DNA of 64,000 bases. It comes from Phycisphaerae bacterium (GTDB taxonomy: Bacteria > Planctomycetota > Phycisphaerae > FEN-1346). The stretch lies in assembly GCA_049678285.1 (NCBI GenBank), contig JBAUDW010000071.1, positions 294 to 64,293 of the forward strand, given 5' to 3'. The position numbers and the translations under genes are program-made. Shown here in pieces: positions 7,141-30,673 of the stretch. Below the pieces are notes generated by a model. That model did no database searches. It worked only from the letters and a program-made list of their open reading frames with translations, and had not been told where the DNA came from. The stretch's first letter is position 1; every line of letters begins with the position of its first letter.

Positions 7141-7347
7141 TGTAGCATCAAGCCCGTCCTCTGTCCACGGGTTGCAGCGTCACGCCGCGTGAAGTTGCGT
7201 TGCGGCACTATCCCAGTATCGGCACTTTCCCAATGCGGATTGACCGGGACTGGCTGTTCTTTCAATTGCTTGGCCGGCGCCTGCGGCACGGCCGCTCTGG
7301 ATGTGGGCTGCCTTAGCGCGGGCGGACTCTGAACCCCTCCCCATTGT

Positions 7348-8331
7348 CTAGACCAAAATCCGGGCCGTTTTAGGTGGACTCATCGCCCCGCTGAGGGCGG
7401 CTGGACCTCCGGGAGCCCGGAGGGCGACCGGAGGTCCAGCCGCCACGCCCGCCGCCTCCCTGCCGACCAGTCCCACCGCCTCGTTCGCTGCGGCCGCCAG
7501 CCCGTACACCTCCGCCGGTGTCCGGTACGATAGCGACTGGTGCGGCCGCTCGTGGTTGTAGAATCCGAAGTACCGCCCGAGGCCCAGCCGCCCCTCCGCC
7601 GGCGTCTGGTAGTCCTTCAGGTACACGTCCTCGTACTTGACCGTCCGCCACAGACGCTCGACGAAGATGTTGTCGAACGCCCGGCCCCGACCGTCCATGC
7701 TGACGGCAATCCCCGACGCCTCCACGAGGCCCGTCCAGGCCTCGCTCGTGAACTGGCTCCCCTGGTCGGTGTTGATGATGCTGGGCCGACGCCCCGTCCG
7801 GAGCGCCGCCTCCAACGCCGCCACACAGAACGCCGCCTCCAACGTCACCGACATCTCCCACGCCACCACGTACCGTGAATACCAGTCCAGGATCGCCACC
7901 AGGTACGCCCAGCCCTGATACAGCGGCAGGTACGTAATGTCCGCCGCCCAGACCTGGTCCGGTCGCACGACCGCCACGTCCCGCAACAGGTACGGATAGG
8001 TCTTGGCGCCCTCCTGGGGCACGCTCAGGCCCCGTTTGCGCCTCGGATAGATCGCCTCCAGGCCCATCCTCCGCAAGAGGCGCCGCACCCGCTTGGGGTT
8101 GACGCGGTGGCCCTCGCGTCGCAGCCACTCGGTCATCTTGGCCACTCCGTAAAACGGCGTCCGCGTGTACTGCTCGTCCAGCAGCCGCATCAGGTGCGCG
8201 TTGGCGACGTCCTCGCCCTGCGGCCGGTAGTAGAGGCTGCTGCGGGCCAGGCCCAGCAGGTCGCACTGCCGGCGGACGGAAATCGCGGGATGTCCCGGCT
8301 CGATGGCCATCCGCTTCGCCTCAACCCCCAA
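7348..8331 (-). CDS. IS3-family transposase OrfB (integrase core, DDE)
   Basis: Motifs [20 protein letters not shown] and [23 protein letters not shown] are classic rve/IS3 OrfB features. Confidence 0.9.
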   Translation of the reverse strand: MGVEAKRMAIEPGHPAISVRRQCDLLGLARSSLYYRPQGEDVANAHLMRLLDEQYTRTPFYGVAKMTEWLRREGHRVNPKRVRRLLRRMGLEAIYPRRKRGLSVPQEGAKTYPYLLRDVAVVRPDQVWAADITYLPLYQGWAYLVAILDWYSRYVVAWEMSVTLEAAFCVAALEAALRTGRRPSIINTDQGSQFTSEAWTGLVEASGIAVSMDGRGRAFDNIFVERLWRTVKYEDVYLKDYQTPAEGRLGLGRYFGFYNHERPHQSLSYRTPAEVYGLAAAANEAVGLVGREAAGVAAGPPVALRAPGGPAALSGAMSPPKTARILV

Positions 8332-8611
8332 GGCCTGATTTTTTTTTCACCCAGTCCAACTCGACCTTCAACTGCCCGATCTGGCGGTACAGTTCCGCCA
8401 CCAGGATCTCCTGCTCCTCGGACCGGCGGTCCCGCCGCCGCGCAAAGACCTCCGGCAACGCCGCCAGGAGCTGCCGCTTCCACTGCGTGATCTGGCTCGG
8501 ATGGACCTGGTACTGACTCGCCAGTTCGGCCAGCGTCCGGTCCCCCTTCGCCGCCTCCAGGGCCACCCGCGCCTTCAGGTCCGCCCCGAACGTCCGCCTC
8601 GCTCGTCCCAT
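8321..8611 (-). CDS. IS3-family transposase OrfA (HTH)
   Basis: 96-aa product with DLKARVALEAAKGDRTLAELASQYQVHPSQITQWKRQ, ending in KKK encoded by the A9 slippery site. Confidence 0.85.
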   Translation of the reverse strand: MGRARRTFGADLKARVALEAAKGDRTLAELASQYQVHPSQITQWKRQLLAALPEVFARRRDRRSEEQEILVAELYRQIGQLKVELDWVKKKSGLGG

Positions 8612-8756
8612 CGATTCGCCTCCCGGCCTTCTCTTCGGCCAGGCGACGAACCCACCTTAACCGCGCGCCCAGTTTTTGGGGAGCATCATACTCTTCGGAA
8701 TTCCGTCCGGCAAGCCCCCGCCGAACAAGAACATGCTTCACTGAATACACGTGTAG

Positions 8757-8962
8757 TATATAATCTGGCCTTTCGCAGGTTTTCATGGCTTTGCGGAACG
8801 CAAGGGAGCCGGAAATGCCCTTTTCCCGCGGTTTTCCCCGGCTTCTTGCCATCGGGCTAATTTTGCGTTCTCCCCCTTGCGCCCATGGCTCAGGGCAAAA
8901 TTAGAATCACCCCGATCCCCCGCAAAATAAGCGTATTTCGTGTTCCAGAATCTGCGAAAGGC
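8757..8962. repeat. nested inverted repeats in an AT-rich intergenic island (outer 16-bp perfect IR ATCTGGCCTTTCGCAG/CTGCGAAAGGCCAGAT, each abutting a TATAAT box; inner 10-bp IR CTAATTTTGC/GCAAAATTAG)
   Basis: Read directly: outer arms at 8763-8778 and 8942-8957, inner arms at 8857-8866 and 8895-8904. GC in this island is far below the window average. Confidence 0.6.
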
Positions 8963-9120
8963 CAGATATAATCCGTCCGGCAGGATCATAAAAAAGGCCG
9001 CCAGAGCAAAGGGCTTACGATGAGATGCTCCGTGGCAGCGTCCGATGGTAAGATAGGGGGGATACGACGATGAGGTATGTTCTATTGCAGCAGGCGCCGC
9101 AAATTTTTGGAGGAATCCAC

Positions 9121-9149
9121 TTGACAACCCCGTAATTATGGAGTATGCT
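9121..9149 (+). promoter_or_regulatory. sigma70-like promoter (TTGACA-N17-TATGCT) upstream of the sugar transferase operon
   Basis: TTGACA at 9121-9126, a 17-nt spacer, TATGCT at 9144-9149. It lies in an AT-rich region about 200 nt upstream of the first gene of the plus-strand operon. Confidence 0.5.
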
Positions 9150-9172
9150 TCTTTTTGGAAGTTTGTAAAAGG

Positions 9173-9346
9173 GGGTGGATCAGCAGGTTTCCTTGGTCGG
9201 GGCGTGCTGATCCACCCGGGACGACGCGCGAGCGAAACGTTTCGCACGCGCCTTATAGCATTATCATAGGCGCGCGTCGTCTCCGGAATCAAGTAAAAAT
9301 CTGGGCGGGCCGTGCAAGCAGCACGGTCCAAGCGGGAGACGACGCG
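9173..9346 (+). promoter_or_regulatory. highly structured 5' leader: three hairpins and a triplicated GACGACGCG element overlapping the SD/start codon (putative riboregulator/attenuator)
   Basis: Hairpin 1 has a 12-13 bp perfect stem (GGGTGGATCAGCA 9173-9185 / TGCTGATCCACCC 9205-9217). Hairpin 2 has arms GGGACGACGCGCG (9218-9230) and CGCGCGTCGTCTCC (9271-9284), with inner palindromes CGAAACGTTTCG between them. A third copy GGGAGACGACGCG at 9333-9345 contains the likely SD and abuts the ATG at 9347. It could pair alternatively with the 9271-9284 arm. Confidence 0.5.
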
Positions 9347-10003
9347 ATGCCGGAACCGGTCACTATCATAGGCTTCGGGGCGGGGTTCCTCGCCTTGACG
9401 AGCCATCTGGCCCGTCGCTACTTTGACGTCGCCAAGGAAGTCGCCGACATCGTCCTCGGATTCCTCGCCCTTGTGCTGAGCCTCCCCGTGTTGATCGTTT
9501 GCGCCGCCATTATCAAACTGTCGCGTTCCGGCCCCGTCCTTTACCGGCAGCAGCGCGTCGGGAAAAACGGTCGGCTGTTCAAGATGTACAAGTTGCGGAC
9601 GATGTACGCCAATGCCGAGTCGGCCACCGGCGCCGTGTGGGCGGCCCGCGGCGACCCGCGCGTCCTGCCGGCCTGCCGCTGGATGCGCCGTAGCCACGTC
9701 GACGAACTCCCGCAACTCATCAACGTGATCCGCGGCGACATGTCGCTGGTGGGGCCCAGGCCGGAACGGCCGGAAATCCTCAGCCAACTCGAAAAAACTT
9801 ACCCCGGCGTCCGCAAGCGGCTGGCGGTCCGGCCCGGCATCACGGGCTTGGCGCAAGTCCGCAACGGCTACGATACGAGCGTCGAGGCCTTCCGCGCCAA
9901 ACTGGAGGCTGACCTCGAATACATCGAGCAGCGGAACTGGAGCACCGAACTCCGGATCCTGGCAGCCACCATGGGCAAACTGCACGACCGCACGGCCCGT
10001 TAG
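9347..10003 (+). CDS. polyprenyl-phosphate sugar phosphotransferase (small bacterial sugar transferase, PglC/WbaP-C-terminal type), initiating EPS transferase
   Basis: One N-terminal TM segment (IVLGFLALVLSLPVLIVCAAII), then KLRTMYANAE, RRSHVDELPQLINVIRGDMSLVGPRPERPE and RPGITGLAQV, the hallmark sugar-transferase motifs. The start is chosen at the Met after the structured leader; the ORF track's 9155 start is read-through of the leader. Confidence 0.85.
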   Translation: MPEPVTIIGFGAGFLALTSHLARRYFDVAKEVADIVLGFLALVLSLPVLIVCAAIIKLSRSGPVLYRQQRVGKNGRLFKMYKLRTMYANAESATGAVWAARGDPRVLPACRWMRRSHVDELPQLINVIRGDMSLVGPRPERPEILSQLEKTYPGVRKRLAVRPGITGLAQVRNGYDTSVEAFRAKLEADLEYIEQRNWSTELRILAATMGKLHDRTAR

Positions 10004-10132
10004 CCGCACGGCCGCTTGAACAAAGGTGCTGCAACAGAAACTACACAGGATCGGAATGAACGCCACAACGAGGGCAGTACTCGGCCTTGTGGACCTGGCC
10101 ATTATCTTCATCCTCTAAGGAGGGAGAGTATT

Positions 10133-11278
10133 ATGATGTGCCGACAGGGAATTATCCTGGTAATCGCGGTGACCTTCCTGGCCAGCCTGGCCGGGACGGG
10201 GCAGGCCGTGACGGTCCCCCTGACGGACCCCACTTACATCCCGCACGATGATGTGCTGGCCTGGAACTGGCAGATCCTCGAGTTGAGCGGCGCCCTTGCA
10301 GCCGTACCGCACAGTCCCAGCGGCAACACCGTATGGCTGCGGATGTTCACGGGCGGCAATACCAACGCCACACCCAACGCCTCCCCCGTCTTTACGCCGG
10401 TGAAACTGGGCAACACCGATCTGAACCCGACGCAGAGCGCCCAGTACTGGTTCGGCCTGCATTATGACAACCAGGATGTCGTCGATAATGTTCTGACTGC
10501 CGGCCAGGTGCTAGGCGTGATCCAGGGGCTGGACGGCCCGACCGCCGTGTGTCCGGTGTTCCTCTTCGACCAGAACCAGTCCGGGGGCGCTTTCGGCAAC
10601 CCCATCCCGGAGGGATGGCCGACCGACCCCACGGCCCCCAACTACCCCAAGGACGACGCCATCTGGCTGCGGGGCCGCGTGATCCTGGTTCCGCCGAGCG
10701 CGATTCCCGGCGGCCTCGGCGCCCTGAATGGCTTGACGGCGACCCAGGTGAACGCACTGATCGACCCCCTGGTCCAGCCGGCGGTGCCCGGCATTCCCAA
10801 CCCGCCCGGCCCGTACGACTACATGCCCTCCGTCGACCCGGTTTCAGGCGTCGTCACGTTCTATTACCGGGATACGGTGTTCAGCGATTTCCCGGATGCC
10901 GCCGGCAACGCTTCGCATCCCACCTGGACGAACAACTGGGCCTACGCGCCAGGACTGTACGATCCGACGCTCTTTCTGCCGCTGCCTCCGGACTATTTTT
11001 CTCCAGAGGCGCTGTTAGAGTTGCCGGTCGACAACAACGGGCAGGGCGCGTTCGCCGACTGGGGCGGCTACTTCCCCCGGTTGGACCTGAGCCTGTATTC
11101 GGATTACGCCTTCTTCGTTGAACTCCAGTCGCGCTACAACAACGACGGGTTCGAAGAGTTGTACATCGTGGGCGGCCTGCCCCGGCGGCAGCCCATTCCC
11201 GAGCCGGTGACGATGGCCGGCCTTCTGCTCGGTATCGGCGGGCTGGTGACGTACGTGCGGAAGCGCCGGACAGCCTGA
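10133..11278 (+). CDS. PEP-CTERM sorting-domain protein (exosortase substrate) 1
   Basis: Signal peptide MMCRQGIILVIAVTFLASLAGTGQA. The C-terminus is IPEPVTMAGLLLGIGGLVTYVRKRRTA, i.e. PEP motif, TM helix and basic tail. AAGGAGGG lies upstream of the ATG. Confidence 0.85.
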   Translation: MMCRQGIILVIAVTFLASLAGTGQAVTVPLTDPTYIPHDDVLAWNWQILELSGALAAVPHSPSGNTVWLRMFTGGNTNATPNASPVFTPVKLGNTDLNPTQSAQYWFGLHYDNQDVVDNVLTAGQVLGVIQGLDGPTAVCPVFLFDQNQSGGAFGNPIPEGWPTDPTAPNYPKDDAIWLRGRVILVPPSAIPGGLGALNGLTATQVNALIDPLVQPAVPGIPNPPGPYDYMPSVDPVSGVVTFYYRDTVFSDFPDAAGNASHPTWTNNWAYAPGLYDPTLFLPLPPDYFSPEALLELPVDNNGQGAFADWGGYFPRLDLSLYSDYAFFVELQSRYNNDGFEELYIVGGLPRRQPIPEPVTMAGLLLGIGGLVTYVRKRRTA

Positions 11279-11464
11279 CTGGCGCTCAGCAGCAAGAAAA
11301 GGAGGTGGGTTGAACAGAAGAGCGCCAAACACTACGACGCCTGTCCAGGTCAGATGACGGCTGCCGACTGATCAGGACAGGGGGAAGGATTGGGACCTGT
11401 GCGGTGGCCGAAAAGCGGTTTCCGAGGGGTAAGTCGGATCCGAAACTATTTAGGAGATCGAATC

Positions 11465-12436
11465 ATGAGGTACTGCAAATTGCTTTTGATGTGCGGCATG
11501 GTGCTCGCCTTGAGCAGCCCGGTGTGGGCGCTTTCCACAACCATTCCGTTCCAGACGGCCTACGTCGGGCCGGTATCATGGCACTTCTCCGACTGGGATG
11601 AGGGGCGCGTGTACACGGGGTTGCTCGCGGACAACCAAACGCCGGTTACGGTAGGCCAAGTCTATGCGCCGGGCGACCTTCAGTCTATTGCTCCCAAAGG
11701 GCCTGCAGGGGTCGGGGATGCCTGGGGTATCATGCGCGTTGAAACCATTTACAACGCGACGTTGACCGGTCCCAACTCCATGACCATCGGCAGCACGCTA
11801 CTGTATGGTTATGGCGACAGTGGGACAGAACTCGCGGGCATTTTCTACGGCCGGCAAGATGACCAGATCATCTTCAACGCGGATGGGTCGCAGACCATCT
11901 ACTCGGACCCATTGGGTTACTTCGGTGACCGAGTCGACCTGTACATTCAGCCGGTCGGAACGGCGGCTAACTGGGATACGGGTATGGCTGGTCCGGGCGC
12001 GTCTGGAGCGGTGGGCGTATACCCCGGTATCGGTGACGATCCTGATTCCACGTTGGTTCTGACCGGTTACATCACGCCGGGCTTCTTGAATGGCGGTCTT
12101 GACGGCGTGTTTTCGAACTTCACGCCGGCTGGCAATACGGGCGAAGGCACATACGGACTCTACCTCACATGGGATGGCGGAACGGATCTGAATCGGTTCG
12201 GCTCCCCGGCCTGGCCGGGCATTTTCCCGTTCTTTGGCGGGCCGGGTGCTCCATTCGATGCCGATGCTCGTCTCAAGGGCACGATCTCGCCCACCATTTA
12301 CCCGTTAGCCGACCCGTGGCTGGTGAACACGTCCGATCCGGCGTTCATGTATGTCGCCGTTCCCGAGCCTGTGACGATGGCCGGCATGCTCCTGGGTATC
12401 GGTTGCCTGGGCAGTTACCTCCGCAAGCGTCGTTAA
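11465..12436 (+). CDS. PEP-CTERM sorting-domain protein (exosortase substrate) 2
   Basis: Signal peptide MRYCKLLLMCGMVLALSSPVWA. C-terminal VPEPVTMAGMLLGIGCLGSYLRKRR. Its passenger region is unrelated to that of protein 1. Confidence 0.85.
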   Translation: MRYCKLLLMCGMVLALSSPVWALSTTIPFQTAYVGPVSWHFSDWDEGRVYTGLLADNQTPVTVGQVYAPGDLQSIAPKGPAGVGDAWGIMRVETIYNATLTGPNSMTIGSTLLYGYGDSGTELAGIFYGRQDDQIIFNADGSQTIYSDPLGYFGDRVDLYIQPVGTAANWDTGMAGPGASGAVGVYPGIGDDPDSTLVLTGYITPGFLNGGLDGVFSNFTPAGNTGEGTYGLYLTWDGGTDLNRFGSPAWPGIFPFFGGPGAPFDADARLKGTISPTIYPLADPWLVNTSDPAFMYVAVPEPVTMAGMLLGIGCLGSYLRKRR

Positions 12437-13655: not shown

Positions 13656-14980
13656 CGAGATCACCCATTTTGAGATGGGGCCAAAGGAAAGACCTCCCAA
13701 GTGCCGAGTTTGCAGGTGGTTAGATGCACCAGGCACGGAAGGGAGGTCGTCATGCGAAAGCAAAGTCTTCTGATGAAAGTGTCGGCCCGTTTGGAGACGT
13801 TTCTGAAGCCAATTTTGGCGGAGGTGGACAAGGTTCGCCGGCGGTTCGTTCGGCAGGCTGTCACGGGGATTCTGACCAGCCGGTCGCTGGTGGTGACCGA
13901 GATGGCCCGCCGGATCCACGACGGCACCGCGGCGCTCGATTACACCGCCAAACGCCTCTGCCGCGAACTGGTGGCCGAGACGTGGCACCTGCCGACGCTC
14001 CAACAGCGCCACCTTGACGCGGTCGCCTCCTGGGTCGGCGAGGAGACACCCATCGCCGTGGACCTGACGGACCTGGCCAAGCCGCGTGGGCGGCAGTTCG
14101 AGTACCTGGCCCTCGTACGCGACGGCGACCAGGATCGACTGCAGCCCGGCTACTGGTGTCTGGAAGCCTACACGGCCGATGGCGAGGAACCGCTGCCGCT
14201 TGTTCTGCAGCCGTTCAGCGTCCAGGACCCGCGGACGCCGAGTCAGAACCTCGTCATCTTGGCGGCCCTGGAGCAGTTGCGTCAGACGTTTGCCAACCGC
14301 GGACTGTACCTCTTTGACCGCGGCTTCGATGCCGGAGAGATCCTCAACGCCTTGCTGGATAAAGGGATGCGCTTCCTGGTGCGGCTCCGCGGCGACCGCC
14401 ATCTGGTCCTGGACCATGGCGTCCGGTTGCCCGCTCGCGACATCGCCGATCGGCTGGCGACGGCGAACGTGGCATGGCGTTGGCGACCGGCCTCTTGCCG
14501 GCTCGATGCGCACTGGATCGGGTACCTGCCGGCCCGCCTGCCCGGACGCCCGGAGCCGCTGACGCTGGTCGTCGCCCTCTTCCCTGGACCGGACGGGGGG
14601 ATGATGATGCTCCTGACGAATCGGGCGGTCGCGTCCGCCCCACAGGCCGAGCACACGCTCCGGCTCTATGCCCACCGGTGGAAGGCCGAGGAGGGCATCC
14701 GGGTCCTGAAGCAGGAGGTCGGCCTGGAGGGGTTCCGCATCCGATGCCTGGAAGCCATCCGGCGTCTGGTCTTCCTCGCCCTTCTGGCGATCGCGTTCCT
14801 GGTGTCGATCAGCGAAAAGACCCTCAGCCTCGCCGAGCAGATCATCCGACGCGGTCAGCCGCTCCGCCGCGCCCGCGGCATGATCCTCTACCGCCTCGCT
14901 CGCGGCATACGCTATCTCTTCACACACCTATCCCCACCCAACCTCGCCGCACTCAGGAGATTCCAAAATGGGTGATCTCG
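13656..14980 (+). mobile_element. IS4-superfamily (IS701/IS4-like) insertion sequence with perfect 17-bp terminal inverted repeats
   Basis: CGAGATCACCCATTTTG at 13656-13672 is the exact reverse complement of CAAAATGGGTGATCTCG at 14964-14980. One transposase ORF lies between them, ending inside the right IR. No clean target-site duplication was recognised. Confidence 0.8.
13752..14975 (+). CDS. IS4-family DDE transposase
   Basis: GGGAGG SD, then ATG at 13752. It carries DLTDLAKP, FDRGFDAGE and LYAHRWKAEEGIRVLKQ (the Y-R-E-K signature of IS4-superfamily DDE transposases). Confidence 0.8.
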   Translation: MRKQSLLMKVSARLETFLKPILAEVDKVRRRFVRQAVTGILTSRSLVVTEMARRIHDGTAALDYTAKRLCRELVAETWHLPTLQQRHLDAVASWVGEETPIAVDLTDLAKPRGRQFEYLALVRDGDQDRLQPGYWCLEAYTADGEEPLPLVLQPFSVQDPRTPSQNLVILAALEQLRQTFANRGLYLFDRGFDAGEILNALLDKGMRFLVRLRGDRHLVLDHGVRLPARDIADRLATANVAWRWRPASCRLDAHWIGYLPARLPGRPEPLTLVVALFPGPDGGMMMLLTNRAVASAPQAEHTLRLYAHRWKAEEGIRVLKQEVGLEGFRIRCLEAIRRLVFLALLAIAFLVSISEKTLSLAEQIIRRGQPLRRARGMILYRLARGIRYLFTHLSPPNLAALRRFQNG

Positions 14981-28681: not shown

Positions 28682-29298
28682 TGTGTTTTCGATCCAGGCG
28701 GCAAACGAAGCGGCCGCATCGAACGGCCGCGAGTACAGGCGTCAACTCAAAGTACCTCATCGGCCGGCCGGATTCAAGGTGCGACGGCCGCTCTGCCGAG
28801 AAAATCGTCCGGATCTTGGCCAGCGGGGCCGATGCCTGAGGACGGCGAAGGGTGCCGGTAGCCGGAGCCAAGGTCGTGCATTGGAGGTGCACGTTGACAG
28901 TTCCGGGCAAGGCGGGCACGCCGGAGAGGACCAAGGCCCGGCGCATGCTGTCAGCATGAAGTCACATACCGCTGGATGGGCCCTCTACCGTGTGGGTTCA
29001 ACAGGTTGTGTACCTGGTTGGCACCGAGGGCATGCCGACGCGGGCAATGGGGTATCGAAGCCAGATATCTGCTTGGCCCAGCGCATAAGGGGGCCAAACT
29101 CCGACGCATCGCGCCGGAGTAACCATCCAAGGCCTTCGCCGAATCCGGGTGCAGGCCCCTTTCATAAAATGACGATAAGCAACAGCGGTCGCGTTGCTCT
29201 TTGGCATCTGAGCGTGTCCCCAAAAGCTGGGCGCGGGTTTAAGGTGGAATCGTCTCCGGGTAGAATAGGGCGGCACGAGCAGCCGAGGAGACGATCGG

Positions 29299-29598
29299 AT
29301 GGCAGGGAAACGCAGACGGTTTTCGGCGGAGTTCAAGGCCCGGGTCGTTCGAGCGGCGCTCCGGGAAGACAAGACGCTGGCGGAGTTGGCTGGCGCGTTC
29401 GAGGTGCATCCGAACCAGATCACCGAGTGGAAGCGTCAGGTGCTGGAGGCCATGCCGGATCTGTTTGGTCGTCGCAAGCAGGCCGACGCGAAGTCGGCCG
29501 AGGAGCACGAGGCTCGGCTGTACCAGCAGGTCGGTCAGCTCCAGGTGGAACTGGAGTGGCTGAAAAAAAAAGCTCGGCAGCTTGGCATGGACGTCTGA
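29299..29598 (+). CDS. IS3-family transposase OrfA (HTH)
   Basis: [36 protein letters not shown]; ends [10 protein letters not shown] at the A9 run. Confidence 0.85.
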
Positions 29599-30673
29599 GG
29601 CGAAGCGAATGATGGTCGAACGCGACAATCCGAACATCCCTGTCGTCCGGCAGTGCGAGTTGCTGACGCTGTCGCGCAGCAGCCTGTACTACCGCCCCGC
29701 TCGCGACGAGGAGGCCGAGGCCTTCGAGTGTCGGGTCTTGAACGCCATCGACGAGTTGTACACGGCCCGTCCGCACCTGGGGCGGTACGGCATGACCGAC
29801 GCCCTGGCCCAGGAGCGACAACTCGAGGTGAACCCCAAGCGGGTGCGTCGGCTGATGAAGATGCTGGGGTTGGAAGCGGTCTATCCTCGGCCGCGGCGGA
29901 ACACGTCGCAGGCCAGTGCCGAGCACCCGAAGTACCCATACCTGCTGCGGAACGTGGAGGTTAGCGCCGTGGATCAGGTCTGGTGCGCGGACCTCACGTA
30001 CATCCGGCTTCATCGAGGCTTTGCCTACCTGGTGGCGGTGATGGACTGGTTCAGCCGCTGCGTGCTGGCGTGGGAGTTGAGTAACACGCTGGACGCGAAC
30101 TTCTGCGTGGAGGCCTTGGCGCGGGCCTTGGCTTCGGGCCGGCGGCCGGCGATCTTCAACACCGACCAGGGCAGCCAGTTTACGAGCGAGGCCTTCACGA
30201 CGGTGCTGATGGAGGCGGGGATCGCCATCAGTATGGACGGGGTGGGCCGGGCGTTCGACAACATCATGGTCGAGCGGCTGTGGCGGACGGTGAAGTACGA
30301 GGAGGTGTACCTGCGGGACTACGAGACGCCGGCGGAGGCCCGCTTGGGGCTGGGTCGGTACTTCAGGTACTACAACCATCAGCGGCGACACAGGAGCCTG
30401 GATCGGCGGACCCCGGCCAGCGTGTATGGCTTGGCCGAGCCGGCCACGGTCCAGCGGGCTCTTGTGCGGCTGGTGAGAAGCGATAGAATCGAGACACCTG
30501 CCTTCGCCAAGGCTTCGGCGGGCAGGGGCGGCGGGCGTTCCGTCGCCGCGAATGCTGCTGTCGCTCCGGTCGCCCTCCGGGCTCCCTCCGCGACAGCAGC
30601 GGGAACGTTACCCATGGCGACGGTTCCACCTTATTCCAGGCTGGAAACTGTCCAGCGCATGGGGACAAGCTAA
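29582..30673 (+). CDS. IS3-family transposase OrfB (DDE integrase core)
   Basis: [43 protein letters not shown]. It has a low-complexity C-terminal tail running into the right end. Confidence 0.9.

Follow-up and report, generated by a model that had tools for sequence, protein, structure and literature searches.

A predicted antisense small RNA gene in the leader of a priming sugar transferase from Planctomycetota

In IS10/Tn10, the antisense RNA known as RNA-OUT is a stable stem-loop of ~70 nucleotides (nt) that is made from its own promoter and overlaps the ribosome-binding site (RBS) of RNA-IN. The countertranscripts (ctRNAs) of pT181 and pIP501, together with ColE1 RNA I/RNA II and R1 CopA/CopT, control plasmid replication genes, and in pT181 and pIP501 the output is a transcription terminator. 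Shigella RnaG/icsA (~450 nt) and phage P22 sar/ant combine transcriptional interference with pairing, which refolds the leader in the case of RnaG and blocks the RBS in the case of sar. To our knowledge, almost nothing is known of RNA-based regulation in the Planctomycetota, a phylum whose members are mostly uncultured and for which we know of no described regulators of this sort. The locus considered here lies in 64,000 nt of DNA from a Phycisphaerae bacterium (GenBank assembly GCA_049678285.1, contig JBAUDW010000071.1, positions 294 to 64,293 of the forward strand; this whole stretch is referred to as the window) and comprises the region 5' of a gene for a priming sugar transferase of exopolysaccharide (EPS) synthesis. 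Embedded antisense in the predicted leader of this gene is what is best read as a previously undescribed small RNA (sRNA) gene of ~95 nt.

An initial annotation of the window had proposed that the transferase mRNA begins with a structured leader whose mutually exclusive hairpins expose or hide the Shine-Dalgarno (SD) sequence, in the manner of a translational riboswitch or an RNA thermometer. The alternative pairing is borne out in the window and in a clade of related loci. The explanation favoured here, with modest confidence, sets it within a wider arrangement: two overlapping convergent units would share 229 bp, and an antisense RNA from one of them would free a segment of the other, arm 2, to close the SD sequence and the AUG.

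The predicted minus-strand small RNA gene

Relatives of the locus were gathered by a protein search with the transferase, which gave 80 loci in GTDB genomes and another 80 in metagenomes. The former all belong to uncultured Planctomycetota, mostly Phycisphaerae-like, and reach at most 77% amino acid (aa) identity, while the metagenome loci reach up to 96% identity. Conservation of the region 5' of the transferase extends well past the close relatives. With a hidden Markov model of the first hairpin of the region (P1) and a covariance model of the whole module, the module was recognized in ~48 distinct loci. In all of them it lies on the strand opposite to the orthologous transferase gene, 94-155 nt before the ATG. 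In the 64 kb of the window the covariance model finds a single copy, on the minus strand, with 115.5 bits. The predicted parts of the module in the window are as follows.

9287 to 9292, minus strand: -35 box TTGATT of the predicted sRNA promoter (promoter scan and alignment)
9263 to 9268, minus strand: -10 box TATGAT of the same promoter (promoter scan and alignment)
9163 to 9256, minus strand: predicted sRNA of ~95 nt, with a 5' hairpin, an 8-nt linker (GUCGUCCC) and a terminator hairpin with U-run (fold and covariance model)
9226 to 9251, minus strand: 5' hairpin of the sRNA (folding), the inner hairpin of hairpin 2 in the initial annotation
9173 to 9217, minus strand: hairpin P1, hairpin 1 of the initial annotation, read as the intrinsic terminator stem of the sRNA; a plus-strand leader would contain P1 too
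9167 to 9170, minus strand: U-run after P1, CCCCCUUUUAC on the minus strand (sequence)

Counts for promoter, terminator and sRNA length refer to an alignment or set of 44 sequences. Outside P1, near-invariance in these sequences is confined to two plus-strand blocks, ATTnTA and GTCAA; the stretch between them varies in sequence while its length is fixed. On the minus strand the two blocks form a TTGAC-N17/18-TAnAAT promoter, located at 9292-9263 in the window. The -35 element keeps TTGA in 40-43 of the 44 sequences, and at least five of six positions match TTGACA in 25 of them. The columns of the -10 element carry T in 39 sequences, A in 43, no preferred base at the third position, A in 35, A in 41 and T in 40, such that at least five of six positions match TATAAT in 36. 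The spacer measures 17-18 nt in 44/44.

Approximately 45 nt downstream of this promoter lies P1, followed by a T-run. The initial annotation had described a perfect hairpin of 12-13 bp at this position, and P1 is a stem of 13 bp without mismatch (9173-9185 with 9205-9217). Across the alignment 95.4% of the cells of its 13 pairs are paired, 10 pairs show compensatory changes and none of 500 shuffles is equal to it. Several measures assign the hairpin to the minus strand. Its G.U pairs number 40 in the minus orientation versus 8 in the plus (p=3e-6 without a phylogenetic correction; 45 versus 13 in a strand-neutral count), and the fraction of paired cells falls to 89.8% when the plus orientation is taken. 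The 9 nt after P1 hold on average 5.9 T on the minus strand against 1.0 on the plus strand in the 44 loci. P1 and its T-run on the minus strand therefore make up a canonical intrinsic terminator. The sequence of P1, including its loop CCAAGG, is conserved well past what a terminator needs.

The RNA defined by this promoter and terminator would be 81-109 nt long in the 44 loci. In the window it folds as two hairpins joined by the linker, with a minimum free energy (MFE) of -44.7 kcal/mol (z=-5.98). A 5' hairpin occurs in 44/44 predicted RNAs with unrelated sequences, and its mean z is -3.0 on the minus strand versus -2.2 on the plus strand. Because the length of this hairpin is too variable to align, it was assessed per sequence and not by column covariation; RNAalifold on a MAFFT alignment recovered P1 alone. 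Like a free-standing bacterial small RNA gene, the unit has its own conserved promoter with correct spacing and an intrinsic terminator. Since the conserved nucleotides of the leader are those of a promoter and a terminator on the opposite strand, the best reading of P1, together with the inner half of hairpin 2, is an antisense sRNA gene. A comparison of orthologous leaders, as had been suggested with the initial annotation, thus gave a divided answer: the three arms of the proposed switch do covary in ~21 loci, but the most conserved features belong to the minus-strand promoter and terminator. A literature search for Planctomycetes yielded nothing on small RNAs or on EPS genes under antisense control.

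A promoter followed by a terminator ~95 nt on is also the layout of an attenuator, and the minus-strand unit could in principle be the leader of the gene to its left, which is an exosortase in this genome. Indeed, a minus-strand exosortase is the left gene in the window clade, L011 and L087. However, the left neighbour differs from locus to locus, with Mfd, GltX and a cysteine/methionine pyridoxal phosphate (PLP) enzyme on the plus strand and exosortase, UDP-N-acetylglucosamine 2-epimerase and an SNF symporter on the minus strand. At least five loci have a plus-strand housekeeping neighbour that converges on the terminator (Mfd, GltX in three loci, and the PLP enzyme). In every left flank inspected (L002, L009, L109, L115, L124, L011, L087, L007, L005 and L107), 440-700 nt of unconserved and apparently non-coding DNA separate P1 from the left gene; conservation ends at the U-run, and no conserved elements were found in these 440-700 nt except in close relatives. 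The module stays with the transferase and not with the left gene. With left genes that vary and often converge on the terminator, the unit is a free-standing sRNA gene tied to the transferase and not a leader of the left gene. The attenuator explanation was accordingly rejected on the variation of the neighbours and is regarded as highly improbable. A 3-keto-disaccharide hydrolase is also among the left neighbours.

One locus, L001, carries a tandem second copy of the module (1644-2200, 89.6 bits) followed by a degenerate spacer and a truncated transferase N-terminus. This copy was considered as an instance of the module independent of the transferase and was set aside as a tandem duplication that includes the truncated gene.

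The minus-strand promoter might also act as DNA, through polymerase collision or promoter occlusion, with the terminator serving only to shield the neighbouring gene or promoter. The geometry would suit such a role: the promoters converge and stand ~110 nt apart in the window, the end of the terminator is 17 nt from the plus-strand -10 box, and the RNA shows no sequence conservation in its 5' domain. On the other hand, conservation of P1 and its loop beyond the needs of a terminator and the 5' hairpin in every predicted RNA are not accounted for, and the conserved distance and structure suggest selection on the RNA product. As the sole explanation, action at the DNA level is rather improbable; it can also run alongside the favoured explanation.

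The three-arm leader and its two folds

On the plus strand the following elements are predicted between the promoter and the end of the transferase gene.

9121 to 9149, plus strand: sigma-70-type promoter TTGACA-N17-TATGCT, with a predicted start near 9156
9156 to 9346, plus strand: predicted 5' leader of the transferase mRNA, its start placed from the promoter position
9215 to 9230, plus strand: arm 1 (CCCGGGACGACGCGCG), a pairing partner of arm 2; on the opposite strand these bases give the sRNA linker and the 3' half of the sRNA 5' hairpin
9271 to 9286, plus strand: arm 2 (CGCGCGTCGTCTCCGG), the anti-SD arm; the same bases are the 18-nt spacer of the minus-strand promoter
9307 to 9329, plus strand: hairpin P3 (GGGCCGTGC/GCACGGTCC) between arms 2 and 3 (G.U bias and compensatory changes)
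9334 to 9349, plus strand: arm 3 (GGGAGACGACGCG), which includes the SD sequence GGAG, then the ATG; probability that the SD is paired, 0.82
9347 to 10003, plus strand: priming sugar (polyprenyl glycosylphosphate) transferase, 218 aa (PF02397 and TIGR03025 matches)

The initial annotation had recognized arms 1 and 2 as the sides of a second hairpin, and the two 16-nt segments are 88% complementary. It had also pointed to a third copy of the element that contains the SD and abuts the ATG, and this copy is found at 9335-9346, where it forms 12 perfect base pairs with positions 9273-9284 of arm 2 and stops one base short of the ATG. The folding that had been proposed as a check gives an MFE of -98.4 kcal/mol for 9156-9370 (z=-5.26; 0/200 shuffles as stable). 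In the MFE structure arm 2 lies on arm 3, a helix that forms with a probability of 0.79. The alternative fold, in which arm 2 pairs with arm 1, has -97.4 kcal/mol, so that the two are 1 kcal/mol apart in MFE and 1.7 in ensemble energy. When successive prefixes of the leader are folded, the helix of arms 1 and 2 arises first. Hairpin 2 as drawn in the initial annotation encloses two small hairpins and thereby a multi-stem junction. The possibility that the arms belong to a dispersed or repetitive extragenic palindromic (REP)-like element was rejected, since the 13-mer GGGAGACGACGCG occurs at chance frequency in the window (9 matches with at most 2 mismatches versus 7.3 expected) and the module, by its covariance model, occurs once in the 64 kb. 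The threefold repetition is therefore local to this site.

Among the relatives, the three-arm arrangement was detected in a clade of ~21 of the 44 loci, the window included. The helix of arms 1 and 2 is stronger than 95% of non-cognate pairs in 17/21 clade loci, and that of arm 2 and the RBS in 15/21. Arm 2 is a promoter spacer, which is normally free to vary, yet in ~21 loci it is complementary to both arm 1 and the SD arm. In alignment A3, columns 22/87/169, one in each arm, change jointly and read C-G-C in 10 sequences and T-A-T in 6-7; columns 16/93/163, again one per arm, read G-T-A or G-C-G, and columns 21/88/168 are G-C-G in L099. The three arms are retained with quite different sequences in L127, L101 and L124. 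Where arms 1 and 3 differ, the difference is tolerated as a plus-orientation G.U pair with arm 2 (window clade, L011, L087, L089 and L007). Over the 21 loci the energies of the two folds differ by a median of +1.0 kcal/mol and lie within 3 kcal/mol of each other in 12. Both traits of an SD-sequestering two-state leader, namely covariation of the anti-SD arm and near-equal fold energies, are thus found in this clade, and the claim that the middle arm can pair either with the first copy or with the one at the SD and AUG is supported by covariation at three linked positions.

The strand on which these helices act can be judged from G.U counts as well. Counted in a strand-neutral way, they favour the plus strand for arms 1 and 2 (32 versus 5) and for P3 (33 versus 11), in which 7 of 9 pairs show a compensatory change. 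This bias suggests that the leader includes arm 1. As judged from the distribution of the arms, the sRNA module is general and the switch a clade-specific addition. With the switch in only ~21 of 44 loci, the sRNA must either have a role that is independent of it or the switch must differ in form elsewhere.

The topology could also be that of a plus-strand leader acting alone as a ligand riboswitch or thermometer, in which hairpins 1 and 2 would respond to a signal and thereby settle whether the SD is closed by arm 2, with the promoter and terminator on the minus strand as functionless look-alikes. The three arms, their covariation and the near-isoenergetic folds are real, the multi-stem junction of hairpin 2 resembles many aptamers, and in the closest relatives of the window the plus-strand form of P1 is the slightly more stable one. 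Several observations speak against this explanation. Rfam 15 has no match at the gathering score in the 64 kb, nothing relevant at E<=10 in 8600-9500 and nothing at E<=1 in five related loci. A riboswitch core would be recognized by invariant junction or loop nucleotides and covarying stems, but the invariant positions here are those of the opposite-strand promoter, and the hairpins that would form the aptamer vary freely in sequence and length. The G.U bias of P1 favours the minus strand, a T-run follows P1 on that strand only, and the switch is missing in half of the loci that bear the module. A thermometer fits poorly because the SD helix consists of 12 perfect, mostly G-C pairs (duplex ~-34 kcal/mol), which is too stable, and no ROSE or fourU family is matched in Rfam. 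The initial annotation was right about a two-state leader that sequesters the SD, while its assignment to riboswitches or thermometers lacks an aptamer or a suitable helix. This explanation is judged quite improbable.

A further possibility is that the sRNA acts in trans or directly on the RBS. Its linker and the 3' half of its 5' hairpin (CGCGCGUCGUCCC) can pair with GGG(AG)ACGACGCG at the SD, in which case arm 1 would resemble arm 3 only as the template of the seed, and the helix of arms 1 and 2 would be a by-product. The linker is unpaired in the predicted RNA, as is usual for seeds. In the window the duplex of seed and RBS reaches -27.0 kcal/mol; in 10/21 clade loci it is stronger than 95% of non-cognate pairs, and in L134 and L092 it has 9 perfect pairs. 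The linked columns 22/87/169 fit this model as well as they fit pairing in cis. Nevertheless, the interaction is consistently weaker, with a mean energy of -21.9 compared to -26.4 for arm 2 with the RBS and -28.9 for arms 1 and 2. The differences between arms 1 and 3 in the window clade, L011, L087 and L089 become C.A in the seed pairing but G.U in the helix of arms 1 and 2. With the whole 5' domain as query, cognate pairs are no better than non-cognate ones, and the existence of arm 2 is left unexplained. Direct action on the RBS is therefore considered unlikely.

The plus-strand promoter and the surroundings of the transferase gene

The initial annotation had drawn attention to a near-consensus sigma-70 promoter ahead of the leader, and it is present as described: TTGACA (9121-9126), a 17-nt spacer and TATGCT (9144-9149) match the consensus at 10 of 12 positions. 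The G+C content of the window is ~0.60-0.70. The promoter scan returned 6 promoter-like sites in 4 kb versus 0.7 expected. The promoter is kept as TTGACA/TTGCCA-N17-TATACT/TATATT/TATAAT in five close relatives (L082, L147, L081, L084 and L083). Between 9153 and 9163, ~300 bp are missing from the window and L082 that are present in the other four, and as a result of this deletion the promoter stands 24 nt before P1 in the window and L082 only. In L147, L081, L084 and L083 the promoter is followed by a conserved stretch of ~165 nt ending in a hairpin and T-run, then by another 130 nt, and then by P1. Positions 1988-2330 of L147 span the piece missing from the window, with the hairpin and T-run at 2163-2190. 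The ~165-nt plus-strand unit contains no convincing open reading frame (ORF) and has no match in Rfam; an attenuator or a further, unannotated small RNA may be encoded there. On this comparison the consensus plus-strand promoter is genuine and conserved among close relatives, yet it does not belong to the conserved module.

A plus-strand promoter inside the module was also considered. The AT-rich -10 region there is partly palindromic (TATCAT at 9262-9267), but no properly spaced -35 box accompanies it and the scan did not list it. In L105 the -35 box of the minus-strand promoter stands only 17 nt from the ATG, which places the mRNA start further to the left, and in general the plus-strand start cannot be to the right of the sRNA promoter.

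Mobile elements have visited the DNA to the left of the plus-strand promoter. An IS3-family insertion (7331-8691) lies between the exosortase and transferase genes, at a site that is empty in L082. Its minus strand carries orfB with rve/HTH_21 (7348-8331) and an orfA-like ORF (8321-8656); its target duplication is ~3 nt, and a second copy, 69% identical, lies at 29217-30386. A ~200-bp insertion resembling a miniature inverted-repeat transposable element (MITE) occupies 8766-8965. It has 19-nt terminal inverted repeats (8763-8781/8949-8967, 95%), a duplicated ATATAAT and one occurrence in the window, and it is absent from L082 and L147. Its arrival split the promoter-like site TTCACT-N16-TATAAT. 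A DDE_Tnp_1 transposase ORF (13701-14975) lies within the polysaccharide cluster a few kb downstream of the transferase and is a further sign of mobile elements reshaping the locus.

The transferase ORF itself is a Bac_transf protein (PF02397, E=1e-60, 204.5 bits versus a cut-off of 27) and aligns to TIGR03025, the EPS polyprenyl glycosylphosphotransferases, over the catalytic, C-terminal half of that model. Its neighbourhood includes an exosortase, a PEP-CTERM-type exporter and a chain-length determinant. The two ORFs directly 3' of it, 10016-11278 (420 aa) and 11390-12436 (348 aa), have no Pfam or NCBIfam match.

A proposed convergent antisense model and its relation to known systems

The favoured explanation brings the two strands together. 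The rightward unit would start the transferase mRNA ~190 nt before the ATG from the promoter at 9121-9149. Pairing of arm 2 with arm 1 would leave the SD exposed, and pairing of arm 2 with arm 3 (9334-9346) would bury it, up to the base before the AUG. Within the leader, the leftward unit (TTGATT-N18-TATGAT, 9292-9263), with arm 2 as its spacer, would make the ~95-nt sRNA that ends at P1 and its U-run. About 100 nt at the start of the leader, arm 1 included, are perfectly complementary to this RNA, and the plus-strand promoter of the window predicts full overlap of leader and sRNA. On pairing with the nascent leader, the antisense RNA would take arm 1 away from arm 2, and the freed arm 2 would close on the RBS and halt synthesis of the priming transferase. 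The effect may be reinforced by duplex cleavage and by collision between the polymerases, which would also explain a role for the sRNA in loci without the switch. We infer the production and overlap of both RNAs, the position of the plus-strand start in the other loci and the role of the sRNA as the trigger of the switch.

A number of observations weigh against this explanation. The other ~23 loci that keep the module have no detectable arms of this kind. Distant loci have no conserved plus-strand promoter and none at a fixed distance to the left of P1, and overlap of the transcripts is assumed outside the close relatives of the window. The minus-strand promoter of the window is only moderate, with 4/6 matches in the -35 box, 5/6 in the -10 box and an 18-nt spacer, and the start sites of both transcripts are predicted. 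Behind the G.U and covariation counts stand a handful of independent events among related sequences, and a fixed-column count in alignment A3 gives 19 G.U versus 20 A.C for arms 1 and 2, the A.C mostly at helix ends. To these is added the slightly greater plus-strand stability of P1 in the immediate clade of the window, already mentioned.

A bolder version may be put forward only tentatively, and it seems less probable than not: that the locus is a self-contained toggle for EPS commitment in a lineage of Planctomycetota, combining facing promoters, a spacer that is also the anti-SD arm, a bistable leader flipped by the antisense RNA, and mutual inhibition. Transcription through the leader would occlude the antisense promoter, so that each unit would inhibit the other, possibly with on/off heterogeneity in EPS as the result. 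If this were true, the phylum would gain its first defined family of regulatory small RNAs, and the module would be a chromosomal counterpart to the countertranscripts of plasmid copy control.

What the analysis provides is a concrete sRNA family with defined predicted ends, described by a covariance model and ~48 examples and linked to a single gene, that of the enzyme that commits the lipid carrier to exopolysaccharide synthesis, beside an exosortase/PEP-CTERM system. If the antisense-driven switch is true, the logic of plasmid countertranscripts would have been reused for a chromosomal surface-polysaccharide pathway, and one DNA segment would double as promoter spacer and anti-SD arm. For genome scans there is a more general lesson, in that what looks convincingly like a 'structured leader' can turn out to be an RNA gene of the opposite strand; counts of G.U versus A.C in each helix tell the two apart.

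Turning to the known systems, IS10/Tn10 offers a close parallel, with an antisense promoter inside and opposite the 5' end of the target mRNA, convergent promoters and translational repression. Unlike RNA-OUT, the antisense RNA here ends ~90 nt upstream of the SD and would act via a relay arm, and the target is a chromosomal EPS gene instead of a transposase; there is no match in sequence or structure. The plasmid countertranscripts share the short structured antisense RNA within a leader, where binding at the 5' side selects between exclusive downstream helices, but in the present locus the output helix would hide the SD and AUG of a chromosomal glycosyltransferase. RnaG/icsA and sar/ant likewise involve a cis-antisense RNA that is transcribed convergently from within the 5' region of a gene; they differ in size and hosts and show no homology, and we know of no description of a promoter spacer that doubles as an anti-SD arm in RnaG or sar. 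Translational riboswitch platforms and the ROSE and fourU thermometers also use an anti-SD segment that picks either an upstream partner or the SD, with folds close in energy. The locus is set apart from these by the lack of a conserved aptamer or Rfam match, by its long and G+C-rich SD helix and by an upstream partner that lies inside an antisense gene. The antisense families of Rfam (RNA-OUT, CopA, RNAI, Sok, SymR, ctRNA_pT181 and others) have no match in the window or in five relatives, which places the module outside the RNA-OUT, sar, countertranscript and RnaG families. By its sequence, then, the module appears to be a new RNA family of a known kind, in which a cis-antisense sRNA is combined with a leader that sequesters the SD.

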